Below are positions 2,653-30,838 of a stretch of DNA of 64,000 nt, one piece after another (within the stretch, counting starts at the first letter, position 1; every line of letters begins with the position of its first letter). This DNA comes from a phage. Under the pieces are notes generated by a model that searched no databases, was not told where the DNA came from, and worked only from the letters and a program-made list of their open reading frames with translations. The DNA lies in sequence record PZ445524.1. The stretch is one strand, 5' to 3'. The position numbers and the translations under genes are program-made.

Positions 2653-4277
<1,625 letters not shown>

Positions 4278-4278
<1 letters not shown>

Positions 4279-4523
4279 TGGAAGGTTTAATTGAAGCTAT
4301 TAAATCAAACGACCTCGTAGCCGCTCGTAAATTATTTGCTGAAGCCATGGCTGCAAGAACGATTGATTTAATTAAAGAAGAAAAAATCGCTATCGCTCGT
4401 AATTTCTTAATCGAAGGTGAAGAACCTGAAGACGAGGATGAAGATGAAGATGATGACGAAGATAGCGATGATAAAGACGACAAAAAAGACAAAGACTCTG
4501 ACGAAGACGAGGATGATGAATAA
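4278..4523 (+). CDS. 67: prohead core protein gp67 with acidic C-terminal tail
   Basis: 81 aa, [20 protein letters not shown] then poly-D/E tail; start overlaps gp20 stop (TAATG). Confidence 0.9.
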
Positions 4524-4948
4524 TGCTTCTGATCCCTGAAACTCATGAATTAGTTCTCGAGAATGTCGAAGCACTTATTCCTGAAGCACAGGGTCGCTTT
4601 GACGAATTGTCTTCTGCTTTAAATAAAGACGATATAAATACAATTGTCGAGAATATGCTTGATGATGAAACTGATTTAGCGGTTGCATTAGCTTCTATTA
4701 ATGAAAATATGCCGTTAAATGAATTCATAGTTAAACATGTTTCTGCCCGTGGTGAAATTACTCGCACTAAAGATCGCAAAACCCGCGAACGAAATGCATT
4801 TCAAACCACTGGGCTGTCTAAAGCAAAACGTAGACAAATTGCTCGTAAAGCTACCAAAACGAAGATTGCCAATCCAGCAGGTCAATCTCGTGCTCAGCGT
4901 AAGCGTAAAAAAGCTCTTAAACGCCGTAAAGCATTAGGATTAAGCTAA
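4523..4948 (+). CDS. 68: prohead core protein gp68
   Basis: 141 aa, basic C-terminus; T4 order 67-68-21. Confidence 0.9.
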
Positions 4949-5586
4949 TGAATGAACCCCAATTACTAATTGAAACTTGGGGTCAACCTGGCGAAATTAT
5001 TGATGGCGTGCCAATGCTTGAATCCCATGATGGAAAAGACTTAGGTTTAAAACCGGGTTTATACATCGAAGGAATATTCATGCAAGCGGAAGTCGTCAAT
5101 AGAAATAAACGTCTTTATCCAAAACGTATATTAGAAAAAGCGGTAAAAGACTATATTAATGAGCAAGTTTTAACTAAACAAGCTCTCGGAGAATTAAATC
5201 ATCCTCCACGCGCTAATGTTGACCCGATGCAAGCCGCTATCATTATAGAAGATATGTGGTGGAAAGGAAATGACGTATACGGACGAGCTCGTGTTATTGA
5301 AGGTGACCATGGTCCTGGAGATAAATTAGCAGCTAATATTCGTGCCGGATGGATTCCAGGAGTTTCTTCTCGTGGATTAGGTTCATTGACTGACACAAAT
5401 AAAGGTTATCGTATCGTAAACGAAGGATTCAAATTAACTGTAGGTGTTGATGCAGTATGGGGTCCAAGTGCTCCAGATGCATGGGTAACTCCTAAGGAAA
5501 TTACCGAATCACAGACGGCGGAAGCCGATACAAGTGCCGATGACGCCTATATGGCTCTCGCAGAGGCCATGAAAAAAGCGTTATAA
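4948..5586 (+). CDS. 21: prohead core scaffold protein and protease gp21
   Basis: 212 aa, same length and position as T4 gp21. Confidence 0.93.
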   Translation: MNEPQLLIETWGQPGEIIDGVPMLESHDGKDLGLKPGLYIEGIFMQAEVVNRNKRLYPKRILEKAVKDYINEQVLTKQALGELNHPPRANVDPMQAAIIIEDMWWKGNDVYGRARVIEGDHGPGDKLAANIRAGWIPGVSSRGLGSLTDTNKGYRIVNEGFKLTVGVDAVWGPSAPDAWVTPKEITESQTAEADTSADDAYMALAEAMKKAL

Positions 5587-23934: not shown

Positions 23935-25986
23935 TTATCCTTGAACGAACTTGTAAGGCATGTTTGCAATATCTATGCAAGACGCAATAATTCCAAGAGA
24001 TGATTCTACTTTCTGTTTAACATTTGACGAAACAAATGATGCAAAGTCAACTCTGTCTTCTATATCACCTGTCATTGTAACCAATTCACCAGTTTCCATT
24101 AAATGGTCTCCGTCATAGATTACCGATTCGGTGAGTTCTTCTGTGGTCATAACTTCAGCTTGAATAAGCTTGTTGTTAGTTCTAACTGTTCCATCATTGT
24201 AAGATGCATCGGTTATTTTATTAACTTTGACCATTAATCCACGTGGCAAAATGACTTCCATTTCATTTGAAGGCGCTAAACTTCCACCGGGTAAAACAAC
24301 ATTGACTTTATCAGCCCCAGTAATAACCCATCCAATTCCAACTAAATTATCGCTAGAATTTACAAGTCCTTCATCAGTTTTATCAATAGAAACGCTTAAA
24401 CGCTTTTCGTCTGGTAAAACACCCACAGATGAATCAGTCATCCAAGTACCAAAAATATTTGGATATAATGATGTTGACACAAAGTTTCTAAAATAAAAAA
24501 CTCGATTTTTTACCATTGCTTCATATATTGAAGGTAACATTCGTTGTGAACGATACAAAGTAATACCTTTTGGTAATCGTTCACCATTTTTAAAGGCTGA
24601 ATCTAAATTATCAATGGCTTGTTCTATTTCAGGTGCTGTTAAAATACTTGTACGCTCATCTGGATTATATAATCCCAAAAGAGCATTATTCATGTCTACA
24701 TATCCTGAACCTACATATTCACGAATTCCGCGTTTTTGCGCTGGTGTGTATTTAGATGAATCTTTATTTTCGACTATAGGATGTAATGACCATCCAGCGG
24801 TAAGAGCATATCCACGTAATTCTCTTCGAATAATCTTTGTTTTTATTGCATTCCAAGAATTTTGTACTAACTCATTTGCAGCATCTTGGTTTAAATGCGA
24901 ATGTTTGTTAATATTTCTTTCAAACCAAGCACCTTTATATTTTTCTAAGGTATCATCGACGATAGAAGCAATAGTTTCTAAAGTTTTTATTGAAGTAATA
25001 GATTCTTTTTTTAATTTTTCTAAAGCTTTATTTTTTATTTCTGCATTAATAATGGATTCTTTATCTTCAGGAATTATAGAAGCTTCTCTGAATGCCATCC
25101 CAGCTGTAACACTACTAAGAGCATTCTCTAATGCAAATCCTGAAGTAGAAATAACAGTTAATTCATTAGCATCAGAAATTAAAGGAGCGTCAGCAGGTTT
25201 ATTTAATTCTGCTGCTGAAGCCTCAAATTTTTGAAACATCGGCGTTTCAAATCTAGAAGATTCCAACGACTGACTTTGTGCAATTGCTCTACGGGAAATT
25301 TTAACTTTAACGATTACAGCTTGGTCAGAACGTTTATCATTTTCTTGTGCAATAGATGCTGCAATTGCCTCATTTTTAGTTACTTGAGCTCCAGTATCTT
25401 TATTGATATAAACATCACCGACCTTCGATTCAACTTTAGTAAAGAGCTCGGTACTAATTTCCGGAACTCCTGGAATGTCTTCTAGTGATACATTTTTGCG
25501 ATGTATAAGAATATATGCATACTTTTTATCATAATCCCAGAGTTCCTTAAGAAGGACGTATCTGCCACCTGAACGACTACGGATAAGTCTATCAGCAATA
25601 ACTTGAATTTGTCGAGCTTGACCAGCAGTTTTAGACTTAAGAATACGAAGCATGCAGGCATCAATTTTATACTGACGCATTGTTTGCATTGCAACAGTAA
25701 AAACCGAATTGATATAATTAATTGGGCTTGGACCAAGACCTTTCAATTTAGCAATTGAACCTTTAGCAGTTAATGTAAAAGGAACAATATGCATCATTTT
25801 ATCGCCCATTTTTAAATCGCGATTAGTATCACCTCCAGATGTATAGGTACATAAACGAAAGCCTGGTTGTTCAATTGCATCATCAACATGAACTGAAAAA
25901 ATTTGCGGTATTTTCTTCTTTGGATGTAAGTTTGTAATTGGAAGAGTAGTATCTTCGTCAAATAATTCTGTAATAAGTTCCATCAT
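23935..25986 (-). CDS. alt: Alt ADP-ribosyltransferase (packaged, modifies host RNA polymerase)
   Basis: 683 aa ORF (682 aa from second Met); T4 Alt length and position; late promoter at 26008. Confidence 0.9.
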   Translation of the reverse strand: MMELITELFDEDTTLPITNLHPKKKIPQIFSVHVDDAIEQPGFRLCTYTSGGDTNRDLKMGDKMMHIVPFTLTAKGSIAKLKGLGPSPINYINSVFTVAMQTMRQYKIDACMLRILKSKTAGQARQIQVIADRLIRSRSGGRYVLLKELWDYDKKYAYILIHRKNVSLEDIPGVPEISTELFTKVESKVGDVYINKDTGAQVTKNEAIAASIAQENDKRSDQAVIVKVKISRRAIAQSQSLESSRFETPMFQKFEASAAELNKPADAPLISDANELTVISTSGFALENALSSVTAGMAFREASIIPEDKESIINAEIKNKALEKLKKESITSIKTLETIASIVDDTLEKYKGAWFERNINKHSHLNQDAANELVQNSWNAIKTKIIRRELRGYALTAGWSLHPIVENKDSSKYTPAQKRGIREYVGSGYVDMNNALLGLYNPDERTSILTAPEIEQAIDNLDSAFKNGERLPKGITLYRSQRMLPSIYEAMVKNRVFYFRNFVSTSLYPNIFGTWMTDSSVGVLPDEKRLSVSIDKTDEGLVNSSDNLVGIGWVITGADKVNVVLPGGSLAPSNEMEVILPRGLMVKVNKITDASYNDGTVRTNNKLIQAEVMTTEELTESVIYDGDHLMETGELVTMTGDIEDRVDFASFVSSNVKQKVESSLGIIASCIDIANMPYKFVQG

Positions 25987-26020: not shown

Positions 26021-26038
26021 AAGGCCCGAAGGCCTTTA
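26021..26038. terminator. hairpin AAAGGCC-CGAA-GGCCTTT between the 62-aa ORF and alt
   Basis: perfect 7-bp inverted repeat. Confidence 0.6.
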
Positions 26039-26224
26039 ATAATCTATTGGTAAGAGAGTACGATATATTTCAAACTTTGGACCTTTTTCATAAGCATCAA
26101 AAGTTTCTGTGAATTTATTATAAGCATATGCATCTATAAATTCAATCATGATTTGTGATACAGAAGTAGAAACATCTCCACCTTCTTTTTGAGCCACGAC
26201 AATTGTTTCTAAGTAAGCTTTCAT
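26036..26224 (-). CDS. hypothetical protein
   Basis: 62 aa ORF between gene 30 and alt; overlaps ligase stop. Confidence 0.55.
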   Translation of the reverse strand: MKAYLETIVVAQKEGGDVSTSVSQIMIEFIDAYAYNKFTETFDAYEKGPKFEIYRTLLPIDY

Positions 26225-27684
26225 AGACCAGTTACCTCATGAAAATCACCAAATACATCCTCGAATGTATTAGCTTTAGTTTTATCTTCACGCAAACGAA
26301 TCGCAATCGGAAGAAATAATTTAACGTAATCAGTGCGGCCATCAGATTTTAACCAACCGTTGCATTCGCACTCTAGAATTTTTCCAATATAATAATTTTG
26401 GTTTTCCATAATGCGAGTACGGTCAAGTTCATGTGATTTTACACCGGCTTTATCTTTTAAGCCTGAACCAGCATTTACTTTAATTTTTCCACACTCTGAC
26501 TCAAGAATAAATCCACCCGCTTTAGTAGGGTCTTTACGGTGAGGATAAATTCCTACAATTTTTAAATCAACATCAATTACTTCTTTAAATTTATAGAGAT
26601 TTTTTGAACGAGCATTTTCCCATAATCCATCGATATTTTTAAGAATAATACCTTCAAGACCTTGGTCAATATACTTTTTATAAATTACCTTAGCTTCATC
26701 TAGGTTATTTACTACCTGGTTTTCAATTAAAATTACTTTATCATAGCCTGATGTCATTTGTTCTAGTTTAGAAAAACGTACATCATATTTCAAACGAAAT
26801 GCAGGAAGACCGTATATTTCTACCAACGGAACATAATCCCAGACCTGAAACTTCATGCATTGAGCTTCTTTTTCAGAAATGGTTCCCTTTAAAGATTTAT
26901 TGGCGATGCCATTAGATGCAGTACGTGATTCAGCTACTTCTGTGAAGTCTTTAACTTTACTGTTTTCAGGATGAGCATCAAAAAGAAAATCTAGGCCTTC
27001 TGGCTCCTTTTTAACTTGCTCATGGTATACCAATTCGCCATCAATTAACACGCCTTCTGGATGAATCTGGCGGGCTTCAGCGGTCATTTTGATTAATTCT
27101 TCCTTAAGAAGATCTAATCCTAGATATTCATTACCGGCTCGTGATAAAAGACGAACATCATCTAATTCATCACCTCTGACTTCGGCAAAGCACCGAGCCC
27201 CATCAGCTTTTAACTGGGCAAAGGCTGGAAATTTGATATTCTTATTAATGCCTTTTTCATCATAAGAACTTGCAAGCATTTGAGGTTGTTCAGGAATTAA
27301 ACCTGGCCAAACTTTGTTCGCAATAGATACTGAAGCACCACATTCAAGGTCTCGCATCATCACTCGACGCAAAACTTCAACATCATCTTTTTTACCATCG
27401 GTGATATATCCAGTTAATTCCTCAATTGCTGCATTTCCAGTCAATTTCCGAGTAGCTAATGTGAATTCAATGAAGTCAAGCATATCGGTAAGAGTCAACA
27501 TTCCAAAACTCTGGGTAGCAATACCAGGTTTAGGCCATTTCTTGATATAATACTGCAACCCACGAGAATAAGTCAGACGATATACTCGTTTAAGCAATTC
27601 ATTATCTTTATTCTTTTCAAGAATTGCTTGCTTCTGCTTAGTTGAACCAATAGATGCTATTTCGTTCAGAATTTTAAGAATCAT
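26221..27684 (-). CDS. 30: ATP-dependent DNA ligase gp30
   Basis: 487 aa; KADGAR adenylation motif; T4 ligase length. Confidence 0.95.
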   Translation of the reverse strand: MILKILNEIASIGSTKQKQAILEKNKDNELLKRVYRLTYSRGLQYYIKKWPKPGIATQSFGMLTLTDMLDFIEFTLATRKLTGNAAIEELTGYITDGKKDDVEVLRRVMMRDLECGASVSIANKVWPGLIPEQPQMLASSYDEKGINKNIKFPAFAQLKADGARCFAEVRGDELDDVRLLSRAGNEYLGLDLLKEELIKMTAEARQIHPEGVLIDGELVYHEQVKKEPEGLDFLFDAHPENSKVKDFTEVAESRTASNGIANKSLKGTISEKEAQCMKFQVWDYVPLVEIYGLPAFRLKYDVRFSKLEQMTSGYDKVILIENQVVNNLDEAKVIYKKYIDQGLEGIILKNIDGLWENARSKNLYKFKEVIDVDLKIVGIYPHRKDPTKAGGFILESECGKIKVNAGSGLKDKAGVKSHELDRTRIMENQNYYIGKILECECNGWLKSDGRTDYVKLFLPIAIRLREDKTKANTFEDVFGDFHEVTGL

Positions 27685-27950
27685 TATTCATCCTTCAGAG
27701 TTTGGTTTACAGCTCTATTATAAATCAATTCATCATTAAGCTCAGTCAAAGACTTATGATATGTGGTTCTAACTTTATTTCCTTGCATCCAGTGCTTGAT
27801 ATAAATGAAACATTGCTCTACGCATTTTTTAAAAATTCGTTCGTCTTTTTGAGCTCGGAATTCTGGATTGCATCTAAAAAATTGATTTACGTGACCGTAA
27901 TCACGTGTAGTATTACCTTCATTTTCATAAATAGTATGAACAACAAACAT
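27684..27950 (-). CDS. hypothetical protein (T4 30.1 position)
   Basis: 88 aa ORF. Confidence 0.7.
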   Translation of the reverse strand: MFVVHTIYENEGNTTRDYGHVNQFFRCNPEFRAQKDERIFKKCVEQCFIYIKHWMQGNKVRTTYHKSLTELNDELIYNRAVNQTLKDE

Positions 27951-28786
27951 TAGAATGCTCCTTGGAAAATATTATCACCACAAGTAGGTCTATTATACAA
28001 ATACTCTATGCCACCGGGTTTAATATAGTTCCATGTCTGAAACGGATGCGTCTGATATGGATGATATAGATTATAAGGATTAAATCCAGGAGTTCTCCAG
28101 GTAGTGTTCCAAGGAAAAGAATCGTTTTTAATCATCTTCTCGATTGCATCTTTTATAGCTTTTTCACGATCAAAACTTTCTTCATTTTCCTTCGGTGAAA
28201 AAAGCTTATTCTCTACATCATTCCATGTATAAACTCGCTGTGCAGTTTTTGGAATACTGTCACGCTCCCCTCGAGCCATCCAATAAACAGGAACACTTAA
28301 TATTTCACTCGCGTGATCGCAGTGGTGAGCGAGATCGTCAATATAACAAATTACGTTATATTTCTCTTTTGCCTTTTTGAACAACTCTTCTTTTGAAGAA
28401 TCATGACCACACATCAGTACTTCTGAGAAGGCACCAGGAAAAAGAGCATTCAAATTAAATTGACGATTCAGCAGAGCGTCAATAGAATCACCCAGTGCTG
28501 TAACAGCTACAAAATTATAATCTTCTTTTAATTTGTTAATTACACACAGAGCATCTTTATATGGAGACAAGTAACGAATAAAATCTGAACGATTGTATTT
28601 TTCAATTAACTTGACGCCAAGTTCTTCATCACAATTAAAAAGTTTACCAGGAGAAATAAATTTTTCATCTTGGATCATTTTTAAAATATGTTCCAACGGA
28701 AGATTATATTTCTGAGCAAAATAAGGAAGGCCTGATTGCCAGCTTAAACATACTCCATCAATATCAGTTAAAATAGTAGGCTTCAT
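27950..28786 (-). CDS. HAD-superfamily hydrolase-like protein (T4 30.2 position)
   Basis: 278 aa; N-terminal DIDGV resembles HAD motif I. Confidence 0.7.
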   Translation of the reverse strand: MKPTILTDIDGVCLSWQSGLPYFAQKYNLPLEHILKMIQDEKFISPGKLFNCDEELGVKLIEKYNRSDFIRYLSPYKDALCVINKLKEDYNFVAVTALGDSIDALLNRQFNLNALFPGAFSEVLMCGHDSSKEELFKKAKEKYNVICYIDDLAHHCDHASEILSVPVYWMARGERDSIPKTAQRVYTWNDVENKLFSPKENEESFDREKAIKDAIEKMIKNDSFPWNTTWRTPGFNPYNLYHPYQTHPFQTWNYIKPGGIEYLYNRPTCGDNIFQGAF

Positions 28787-29247
28787 AGAGAGTCTCTTAA
28801 TAGGTTTAACACATCAATAAATTCAGCTTCGGTTAGTATTGTATCATCTTTTGTTAGACCACTAGCCATGCTGTGCTTCAAAACTTTTCCTTTCGAGGCT
28901 TGTAATGCATCACGAAAGCCCTTGTTTTGGATCGCTGCTTCAAAATATGCATTTGTGTATAATTCTTTCCACGCCGGGGAGTATCTTGAAAACGGAACTC
29001 CAAGCCAGAAGAGGGTCCCACGGTCCTGAGCTCTAGCATAAGACCTTCCAGCTTGTTGAGCGGCAAGCCCGGATAACCCAAATATACGACGTTGTTGTTC
29101 AACGTTTTTCACCTTGCATCCTTGGAGGAATCCTTCAAGACCTCCAAATTGAATACCATCCATAACGAAAGGCCAATGGGCGAAATTACTTAATGCACAT
29201 GATGGCCACCTAAAATTACTTCTAATCTCTAACTCAGACATTTTCAA
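28783..29247 (-). CDS. NADAR/YbiA-like domain protein (T4 30.3 position)
   Basis: 154 aa; SNFAHWPFVMDG and EGFLQGCK resemble the YbiA/NADAR motifs SNFAAWP...DG and EHYFQAQK. Confidence 0.6.
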   Translation of the reverse strand: MKMSELEIRSNFRWPSCALSNFAHWPFVMDGIQFGGLEGFLQGCKVKNVEQQRRIFGLSGLAAQQAGRSYARAQDRGTLFWLGVPFSRYSPAWKELYTNAYFEAAIQNKGFRDALQASKGKVLKHSMASGLTKDDTILTEAEFIDVLNLLRDSL

Positions 29248-29440
29248 TGCTTATAATTTCAACATCAGCCCAATGACCATAGTTTGGTAGACGAAATTCA
29301 ACTGGCCAGTCACTGCCTTTTTCTAATATAATAGACTTAACTTGTGGTTCTTCGTGTTCATCAGTATACGGATTTTTATCTGTTACTTTATATGTGACCT
29401 TAATGTACTGAATTCCAAAAATCTTATTAATTATATTCAT
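29234..29440 (-). CDS. hypothetical protein (30.x cluster)
   Basis: 68 aa ORF. Confidence 0.6.
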   Translation of the reverse strand: MNIINKIFGIQYIKVTYKVTDKNPYTDEHEEPQVKSIILEKGSDWPVEFRLPNYGHWADVEIISIENV

Positions 29441-29921: not shown

Positions 29922-29962
29922 AATATTTTCCTCAATAGGGGGCCGAAGCCCCTCATTTTATT

Positions 29963-30802: not shown

Positions 30803-30833
30803 GGAAAATAAAAAAGGACTCCCGAAGGAGTCC
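30803..30833 (-). terminator. intrinsic terminator after the basic small protein gene
   Basis: GGACTCC-TTCG-GGAGTCC perfect 7-bp stem followed by TTTTTTATTTT. Confidence 0.85.
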
Positions 30834-30838
30834 TCAAC

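Follow-up and report, generated by a model that had tools for sequence, protein, structure and literature searches.

An adfN orthologue and a neighbouring putative HAD-fold phosphatase gene in the DNA ligase region of a T4-like phage

Introduction

The AdfN protein of phage T4 (gp30.3) removes ADP-ribose from guanine-modified DNA and protects T-even phages from DarTG1 (PMC11825919, PMC11125620), and its action as a counter to DarTG1 has been shown experimentally (Nat Commun 2025; Toxins 2024). In the published work, T4 AdfN stripped ADP-ribose off DNA in vitro, hydrolysed guanosine-ADP-ribose and not thymidine-ADP-ribose (PMC11125620), was impaired by the mutations E36A and K43A, and gave no two-hybrid interaction with DarT1. 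AdfN was required for the DarTG1 resistance of T4, and phage RB69, the AdfN of which is truncated with loss of the C-terminal helix and reduced activity, was fully rescued by ectopic adfN alone. T4 AdfN did not rescue uninfected cells from DarT1, and its full activity was obtained only during T-even infection; this dependence on T-even infection means that a phage partner of AdfN exists or is plausible.

The DarG1-type NADAR antitoxins and Escherichia coli YbiA (PF08719; PDB 8bat, 8bau and 2b3w) have in common with AdfN the fold, the E-x-x-x-Q-x-x-K catalytic motif and, according to the literature, the guanine-ADP-ribose chemistry, and a histidine at the position of AdfN H123 has been described as the defining mark of phage NADARs (Toxins 2024, PMC11125620). 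For the product of the adjacent gene 30.2, a literature search by name and phrase returned the AdfN paper only and no published function or assay.

Here, we analysed a window of 64,000 nucleotides (PZ445524.1) that comes from a T4-like phage (Tequatrovirus). We consider it very probable that gene 30.3 of this phage encodes AdfN, that gene 30.2 encodes a HAD phosphomonoesterase, that the two proteins function independently of each other, and that their proximity to alt is a matter of gene order.

Organization of the gene 30.4 to gene 30 region

The two ORFs singled out in a preliminary description of the window are both present on the minus strand. The first, a 154-aa ORF at 28783..29247, begins with a TTG codon at 29247 and is 6 nt longer than gene 30.3 (adfN, anti-DarT factor NADAR; 28783..29241), because both the annotation of T4 and the residue numbers in the literature start from the ATG located two codons past the TTG, which gives a protein of 152 aa. 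The second is gene 30.2 (27950..28786), which encodes 278 aa, and its start codon overlaps the stop codon of gene 30.3 in an ATGA read from the sequence at 28783..28786 (minus strand). Upstream, gene 30.4 (29234-29440) encodes a 68-aa protein, and its stop codon overlaps the gene 30.3 ATG at 29241 (ATGTCTGA). Gene 30.1 and the DNA ligase gene (gene 30; 26221..27684) are located directly downstream of the 30.3/30.2 pair, and alt is found at 23935..25986. Both ORFs are within 3 kb of alt, as had been described.

The junctions are tight throughout the run from 30.4 to 30, with an 8-nt overlap at 30.4/30.3 and TAATG at both 30.2/30.1 and 30.1/30. No terminator-like sites were found at the gene junctions of this run, and from 30.4 to gene 30 the minus strand has a single such site, a weak hairpin within the 30.3 coding sequence. 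We regard genes 30.3 and 30.2 as adjacent, co-transcribed early genes, and their functions are proposed to be mutually independent.

Gene 30.3 is an orthologue of T4 adfN

The gp30.3 proteins of the window and of T4 are of equal length and identical at 150 of 152 residues (99%), the sole substitutions relative to T4 AdfN being Q22H and I125M. The C-terminus is the same as that of T4, and the full-length, 152-aa protein retains the C-terminal helix. The residues corresponding to the catalytic Glu36 (codon GAA, 29134..29136; E38 in the 154-aa numbering), the catalytic Lys43 (codon AAG, 29113..29115; K45) and the phage-type His123 (28873..28875; H125), all encoded on the minus strand, are invariant in the family alignment. 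The window protein and T4 AdfN therefore have E36, K43, H123 and the C-terminal helix in common, as well as the slot between 30.4 and 30.2, and nothing in the sequence suggests a functional difference between them.

In Pfam, gp30.3 matched PF08010 (Phage_30_3) with an E-value of 7.7e-70 and a score of 233.5 bits, where the cutoff is 36. The preliminary description had reported NADAR-like motifs and had proposed a search with PF08719 (NADAR) as a check; there was no direct Pfam match of the window protein to PF08719 at E ≤ 1, whereas three of nine gp30.3 family members matched it weakly (best E = 0.0031). Because a direct PF08719 match was absent, the connection to NADAR proteins was made through the family profile, the relatives and the structure. 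A PDB search with the single gp30.3 sequence gave matches at the level of noise only. With the family profile, the top match was YbiA (2b3w; E = 0.057); the profile segment LSNFAxWPFxxDGxxFGGxEGFLQGxK aligned with YbiA FSNFAAWPIKVDGKTWPTSEHYFQAQK, and within it the AdfN motif E-G-F-L-Q-x-x-K aligned with the YbiA motif EHYFQAQK.

An AlphaFold (AF2) model of gp30.3 had a pLDDT of 81 and a pTM of 0.80. When this model was compared with the PDB using Foldseek, the top three matches were the NADAR structures 2b3w (YbiA; E = 1.6e-4), 8bat and 8bau, with match probabilities of 1.00, 0.97 and 0.93, and all later matches had probabilities of 0.06 or less. In the model, H125 (154-aa numbering) lies within the last strand (E122-125), and the C-terminal helix spans 140-153. 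On the strength of this model, gp30.3 is predicted to have the NADAR fold; the profile and model searches led to NADAR proteins (YbiA, 8bat, 8bau) and not to an unrelated fold, which upholds the motif assignment that had been made from the ORF. The structural alignments with the DarG1-type NADARs and YbiA show 12-18% identity, and the last-strand residue differs: gp30.3 has His where, according to the literature, DarG1-type proteins have Asp and those of the YbiA type have Glu. Unlike the DarG1-type antitoxins, gp30.3 is an orphan without a partner toxin.

The 154-aa ORF is gene 30.3, an orthologue of T4 AdfN, which is a NADAR-fold guanine-ADP-ribose DNA glycohydrolase. The near-identity to T4 AdfN and the intact catalytic residues suggest that the mechanism demonstrated for the T4 protein would also operate in the window phage. 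Host DarTG1, once triggered, would block replication through the ADP-ribosylation of guanine bases of the phage DNA by DarT1. AdfN would then act as a stand-alone ADP-ribosylglycohydrolase that cleaves the N-glycosidic bond between ADP-ribose and guanine by means of Glu36, Lys43 and His123, with release of ADP-ribose and restoration of replicable DNA, and presumably without binding the toxin.

gp30.2 has the HAD fold and all four catalytic motifs

The N-terminus of gp30.2, MKPTILTDIDGV, contains the DxDGV motif (D8-I-D10-G11-V12) that had led to the preliminary assignment of this ORF as HAD-type. The assignment was confirmed by an alignment of 38 homologues (mean column identity, 34%), in which no variation occurs at D8, D10, G11, K132, D150 and D151 and T96 is almost always retained (Ser in a few), and by the predicted structure, the core of which was modelled confidently as a HAD fold with a Rossmann-like core and, following motif I, an inserted helical cap (C1-type). 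The HAD-fold core corresponds to aa 1-200 (28187..28786, minus strand) and contains motif I (D8-I-D10-G-V), motif II (T96), motif III (K132) and motif IV (D150-D151). As judged from the alignment, this conservation goes far beyond a chance match to DxDGV, and gp30.2 combines a HAD fold with the full set of catalytic motifs.

Searches with curated models were less informative. No HAD model in Pfam or NCBIfam matched gp30.2 above threshold, a PDB search with the single sequence gave noise-level matches, and neither NCBIfam nor PADLOC gave a useful result. Distant relatives of gp30.2 matched PF00702, PF13419 and PF06941 (NT5C), all below the gathering score, and the N-terminal fusion parts of four such relatives (P0170, P0229, P0124 and P0164) contained no Pfam domain or functional hint. 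The lack of a match to a curated HAD model lowers confidence in a named subfamily for gp30.2, but not in the fold. Some GenBank records of 30.2 carry the names "HAD-like hydrolase", "putative phosphatase" or "5' nucleotidase". Members of the family occur in 1453 phage records and in 1341 cluster representatives.

The best structural matches of gp30.2 were small-molecule HAD enzymes, the best TM-scores being those of 5'(3')-deoxyribonucleotidases, and mouse cdN was the top match in a sequence-profile search of the PDB. cdN, mdN and the bacterial NT5C-like enzymes (PF06941; 2jao, 2i7d and 3bwv) have in common with gp30.2 the HAD core, the helical cap, motif I DxDGV, motifs II-IV, and an aromatic residue 8 positions past the nucleophile; in the profile alignment, W16 of gp30.2 pairs with the Phe of cdN at this position. 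The identity to these enzymes is 17-21%, and gp30.2 differs from them in the absence of a PF06941 match and in an additional disordered tail of about 80 aa. gp30.2 is most likely a Mg2+-dependent HAD phosphomonoesterase; the fold and motifs are found in the protein, and its activity and substrate are deduced. Asp8 would act as the nucleophile, with Asp10 serving as the general acid/base, and by analogy with the 5'(3')-deoxyribonucleotidases, its nearest relatives, the substrate is most likely a small nucleotide-like phosphoester.

That gp30.2 is instead catalytically inactive despite its HAD fold, or has been recruited to a binding role, would accord with the absence of Pfam and NCBIfam matches above threshold and with published T4 Tn-seq results, in which both 30.2 and 30.3 were non-essential on K-12 and insertions in 30.2 were obtained at 72 of 72 TA sites. 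However, the residues of HAD motifs I-IV are all invariant or nearly so, as selection on catalysis would give, and we regard an inert gp30.2 as very unlikely.

The C-terminal extension of gp30.2 (aa 201-278 plus the stop codon; 27950..28186, minus strand) is disordered, Pro- and aromatic-rich, and clade-variable. The model has pLDDT values below 50 at aa 225-235, 239-259 and 269-278. The tail is absent or little developed in 44 of 100 homologues and at least 40 aa long in the other 56, and these tails are heterogeneous, with at least three unrelated types. A motif of the form [ED][YWF]x(3-5)P[TRK] was found in 26 of the 100 homologues, mostly as G-I-E-Y-L-x-x-x-P-T. The T4 sliding-clamp-binding motif is of the LDFLF type, and the IEYLY of the gp30.2 tail was considered as such a motif; this idea was dropped in view of the heterogeneity of the tails and the large share of homologues with little or no tail.

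Gene order and Tn-seq data separate gene 30.3 from gene 30.2

Direct adjacency of 30.3 and 30.2 was found only in the T-evens and Lazarusvirus among the lineages examined. In RB43, four ORFs lie between the two genes; in phiR1-RT, Klebsiella Phi_KR1 and Aeromonas SW69-9, 30.3 is located inside tRNA clusters, far from 30.2; and in Vibrio K567, 30.3 adjoins sbcCD, with no gp30.2 homologue detected at this locus. Gene 30.2 adjoins the ligase gene in the related phages Klebsiella Roth77 and Aeromonas avDM9-HANS, and five lineages (T4, RB43, Lazarusvirus, Klebsiella Roth77 and Aeromonas Biquartavirus) share the arrangement 30.2-(30.1)-ligase.

The conserved proximity to the ligase gene would fit a gp30.2 that acts as a DNA-end 3'-phosphatase or other repair-linked phosphatase, readying nicks for the adjacent ligase in the manner of the HAD domain of T4 polynucleotide kinase/phosphatase (1ltq, 5uj0), which like gp30.2 is phage-encoded and has a HAD catalytic core. 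A weak PHROG match of gp30.2 to polynucleotide kinase (E = 0.0036) points in the same direction, and the disordered tail, with its short conserved motifs, could provide a tether to a partner. On the other hand, gp30.2 has a helical cap after motif I, its best structural matches act on small molecules, and the polynucleotide kinase phosphatase ranks lower among the matches and aligns over only 126-130 residues. Furthermore, T4 already possesses Pnkp, the tail is missing in about half of the homologues, and adjacency in the core regions of T4-like phages often is plain synteny. We consider a DNA-end phosphatase unlikely relative to the reading of gp30.2 as a phosphatase of small nucleotide-like molecules.

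The preliminary description had also proposed that the two genes could form an ADP-ribose-handling or anti-defence module in the vicinity of alt. In its joint form, this would mean that alt, 30.2 and 30.3 make up one module in which the HAD phosphatase acts on what the NADAR enzyme or the ADP-ribosyltransferase Alt uses or produces. Consistent with such a module, the three genes lie within 3 kb on the same strand, with the ATGA overlap of 30.3 and 30.2; the order 30.3-30.2-ligase-alt occurs also in Acinetobacter Lazarusvirus; T4-like NADAR genes are, in a survey paper, expressed early alongside ARTs; and the full activity of AdfN depends on the T-even context. Nevertheless, stop/start overlaps are the norm across the 30.4-to-30 run, and 30.3 is unlinked from 30.2 in phiR1-RT and in the Klebsiella and Aeromonas phages. 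Moreover, NADAR enzymes release free ADP-ribose, a molecule that offers a HAD phosphatase no phosphomonoester to cleave.

The published Tn-seq of T4 under DarTG1 (HIDEN-SEQ table) bears directly on this question. Gene 30.3 was strongly depleted (log2FC -7.25, adjusted p = 0), whereas 30.2 (log2FC -0.12) and alt (log2FC -0.01) were not (adjusted p = 1 for both), and 30.2 was likewise unchanged in the first resampling sheet (log2FC 0.34, adjusted p = 1), the null result for 30.2 covering one DarTG1 system, one host and rich medium. The complete rescue of RB69 by adfN by itself also argues against a joint function. We conclude that gp30.2 takes no part in the anti-DarTG1 mechanism and that 30.2 and 30.3 owe their location near alt to the conserved order of genes in the ligase region rather than to a common ADP-ribose pathway. 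For DarTG1, the joint module is largely refuted, and we now view it as extremely unlikely; what stands of the proposal is the anti-DarT function of gp30.3, by virtue of its orthology to T4 AdfN, and what falls, on the Tn-seq data and the synteny, is a role shared with 30.2 and alt.

Discussion

On the Tn-seq data and the broken synteny, we also rejected the idea that gp30.2 is the T-even cofactor on which AdfN would depend. Besides 30.3, the only gene depleted significantly under DarTG1 was 30.4, and this depletion, which was weak and specific to DarTG1, could be due to polarity or to a real contribution. gp30.4 was found in enterobacterial T-evens only, and it would be a better candidate than gp30.2 as the source of the T-even dependence of AdfN. 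The reading to which this belongs holds that a co-translated gene of the cluster supplies this dependence and that gp30.2, separately, represents an uncurated, phage-wide, ligase-linked HAD family with a role in the nucleotide pool or at DNA ends; as a whole, we think this improbable.

The anti-DarT role of gp30.3, which had been put forward as an open lead, is already published. Apart from the prediction that this phage resists DarTG1, nothing new follows from the presence of AdfN in a further T4-like genome. As for gp30.2, it belongs to a widespread family of putative phosphatases, encoded beside the DNA ligase gene in the five lineages examined and otherwise ordinary.

Gene Order and Identity of the Two Open Reading Frames

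The 1.9-kb stretch around the two open reading frames (ORFs) matched 661 phage records, mostly Escherichia, Shigella and Yersinia Tequatrovirus genomes, and the best match was to Shigella phage SHFML-26 (98.1% identity). The minus-strand gene order in the window was found to be the same as that of phage T4: alt (23935-25986), alt.1 (26036-26224), gene 30 encoding DNA ligase (26221-27684), 30.1 (27684-27950), 30.2 (27950-28786), 30.3 (28783-29241) and 30.4 (29234-29440, 68 aa), with 30.5, 30.6 and onward lying beyond 30.4. Therefore, the 154-aa and 278-aa ORFs, both of which are present as the preliminary description had them, are T4 genes 30.3 and 30.2. Overlaps of 1-8 nt occur throughout the run from 30.4 to 30, and so the ATGA stop/start overlap of 30.3 and 30.2 is not distinctive. 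The sole terminator-like site on the minus strand of this run is a weak hairpin within the 30.3 coding sequence. Farther along are two strong GC-rich hairpins, one at 30814-30835 (minus strand; GAGGACTCCTTCGGGAGTCCTT) that is terminator-like, with a T-run after it on the gene strand, and one at 29938-29953 between 30.7 and 30.6 (GGGGGCCGAAGCCCC) with its T-run on the opposite strand.

Gene 30.3 Encodes the NADAR Protein AdfN

The 154-aa reading of 30.3 uses a TTG start at 29247, and the start annotated in T4 is an ATG two codons downstream at 29241, giving 152 aa. The stop codon of 30.4 overlaps this ATG by 8 nt, within ATGTCTGA, and the published residue numbers E36 and K43 are consistent with the ATG start only. 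The window protein is identical to T4 gp30.3 at 150 of 152 positions (the changes are Q22H and I125M). A 74-aa out-of-frame ORF inside 30.3 (28878-29102, minus strand) has its T4 counterpart in 30.3', annotated there as "internal translation, in a different reading frame".

The Pfam family of the window protein was PF08010 (Phage_30_3, 7.7e-70). The NADAR family PF08719, proposed as a check of the preliminary assignment, was not matched directly by the window protein in the Pfam search, although three of nine gp30.3 family members matched it weakly (best E = 0.0031). A PDB search with the profile of these nine members gave E. coli YbiA as the top match (2b3w, E = 0.057), in an alignment spanning the LSNFAxWP...EGFLQxxK motif. 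The AlphaFold2 model of gp30.3 (pLDDT 81, pTM 0.80) matched 2b3w, 8bat and 8bau with probabilities of 1.00, 0.97 and 0.93; these are exactly the three solved NADAR structures, and later matches had probabilities of ≤0.06. Glu36, Lys43 and His123 are invariant in the family alignment, and His123 lies within the last β-strand of the model; a His in the last strand is the hallmark of phage NADARs (PMC11125620). The window protein retains, intact, the C-terminal helix that the inactive RB69 allele has lost. Taken together, the YbiA profile match, the top structural matches to NADAR proteins and the invariant E/K/H residues confirm the NADAR assignment.

The function suggested for this ORF, removal of ADP-ribose from guanine modified by a DarT-type toxin, is also correct and had previously been demonstrated for T4 gp30.3, so that the core finding is not new. 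T4 30.3 was given the name adfN, for anti-DarT factor NADAR, by Johannesman et al. (Nat Commun 2025; PMC11825919). In that work, T4 and T2 lacking adfN formed no plaques on cells carrying the DarTG1 defence system, RB69 was rescued by ectopic adfN expression, and purified AdfN stripped ADP-ribose off DarT1-modified DNA; AdfN was impaired by E36A, K43A and an RB69-like truncation, and AdfN-DarT1 binding was absent in a two-hybrid assay. Guanosine-ADP-ribose is a substrate of T4 gp30.3 hydrolysis, and thymidine-ADP-ribose is not (Toxins 2024; PMC11125620); both studies note that the protein gives uninfected cells no protection against DarT1. Independent transposon sequencing of T4 (HIDEN-SEQ; bioRxiv 10.1101/2025.11.20.689424) showed a loss of insertions in 30.3 when DarTG1 was present. 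According to the methods of PMC11125620, the construct named "E. coli T4 phage NADAR (gp30.3)" spans residues 1-208, compared to 152 aa for gp30.3 in the T4 reference genome; tag residues may be included in this range, or the construct may represent another homologue.

Gene 30.2 Encodes a Candidate HAD Phosphatase

Window gp30.2 is identical to T4 gp30.2 at 271 of 278 positions. No Pfam or NCBIfam family was matched above threshold, and its PHROG (420) carries no function label. Homologues were found in 1453 phage records at the protein level, and a profile search of a 1.84-billion-protein representative library returned 1341 clusters at E ≤ 0.001, most of them stand-alone and roughly 200 aa long. 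Across 38 aligned homologues, with identities as low as 34%, D8, D10 and G11 (motif I), K132 (motif III) and D150 and D151 (motif IV) were invariant, and T96 (motif II) was nearly so. AlphaFold2 modelled residues 1-200 very confidently (pLDDT above 90), with disorder at 225-235, 239-259 and 269-278. The complete motif set and the confident model bear out the earlier HAD assignment.

The top PDB sequence match of the family profile was mouse cdN (E = 0.08), with the invariant W16 aligned opposite the cdN Phe eight residues past the nucleophile position, and distant relatives gave sub-threshold matches to PF06941, PF00702 and PF13419. Several GenBank records already name the product "HAD-like hydrolase", "putative phosphatase" or "5' nucleotidase"; a literature search found no paper on gp30.2 function. 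The fold and motifs are established here, and our best inference is that gp30.2 would be a phosphomonoesterase that depends on Mg2+, its predicted substrate being small and nucleotide-like.

The C-terminal tail (aa 201-278; window 27950-28186, minus strand) is disordered, contains many aromatic residues and prolines, and varies between clades; 44 of 100 homologues lack it or have only a short version. Its short motif GGIEYLYNRPT recurs in many, not all, homologues, as G-I-E-Y-L-x-x-x-P-T in the tails of T4-like and Klebsiella-phage versions; in other clades the tail is unrelated or absent.

The Proposed Joint Module of Genes 30.2, 30.3 and alt

Although both family assignments stood, the proposal that 30.2, 30.3 and alt form a joint ADP-ribose-handling module was not supported, with genetics, synteny and chemistry all against it. 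In the HIDEN-SEQ control-versus-DarTG1 table for T4, the log2 fold change was -7.25 for 30.3 (adjusted p = 0), -0.12 for 30.2 (adjusted p = 1) and -0.01 for alt (adjusted p = 1); on a plain K-12 host, 30.2 and 30.3 were both dispensable.

Gene 30.3 adjoins 30.2 in the T-evens and an Acinetobacter Lazarusvirus, and four ORFs separate the two in RB43. In Yersinia phage phiR1-RT, Klebsiella phage Phi_KR1 and Aeromonas phage SW69-9, the 30.3 homologue (4001-4438 of loci L002, L004 and L005, respectively) lies within a tRNA gene cluster and not in the ligase region. In a KVP40-like Vibrio phage it adjoins sbcCD, and no gp30.2 homologue was found within that locus. Gene 30.2 directly precedes (30.1 and) DNA ligase in T4, RB43, the Lazarusvirus, Klebsiella Roth77 and Aeromonas Biquartavirus. 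The Roth77 order is 30.6-30.5-x-30.2-30.1-30-alt, and therefore 30.3 and 30.4 are absent from that slot. The NADAR gene has relocated, and the 30.2-ligase pair has kept its place. As to chemistry, it is established that the NADAR reaction yields free ADP-ribose, and this product carries no phosphomonoester on which a HAD phosphatase could act. Gene 30.2 encodes an ordinary, uncharacterised HAD phosphatase candidate.

Directly downstream of the gp30.3 homologue in Vibrio phage K567 is a 168-aa gene (4453-4959 of locus L006) whose N-terminus weakly resembles that of gp30.2 (aa 2-20, E = 0.79); this gene may be a second HAD-like one. In related Vibrio phages, the better gp30.2 homologues lie elsewhere in the genome.

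Gene 30.4 and the T-Even Context of AdfN

Besides 30.3, the only gene significantly depleted under DarTG1 in the published T4 transposon sequencing was 30.4, and this depletion was modest (log2 fold change -1.79, adjusted p = 0.014; HIDEN-SEQ). Homologues of gp30.4 are confined to enterobacterial T-evens (720 phage records, compared to 1511 for gp30.3), and none was found beside gp30.3 in six distant T4-like loci. AdfN rescued non-T-even phages only weakly, and an additional T-even factor was suggested as a possible need (PMC11825919). The simplest reading of the 30.4 depletion is polarity on the overlapping adfN start, and it could alternatively reflect an accessory role of gp30.4.
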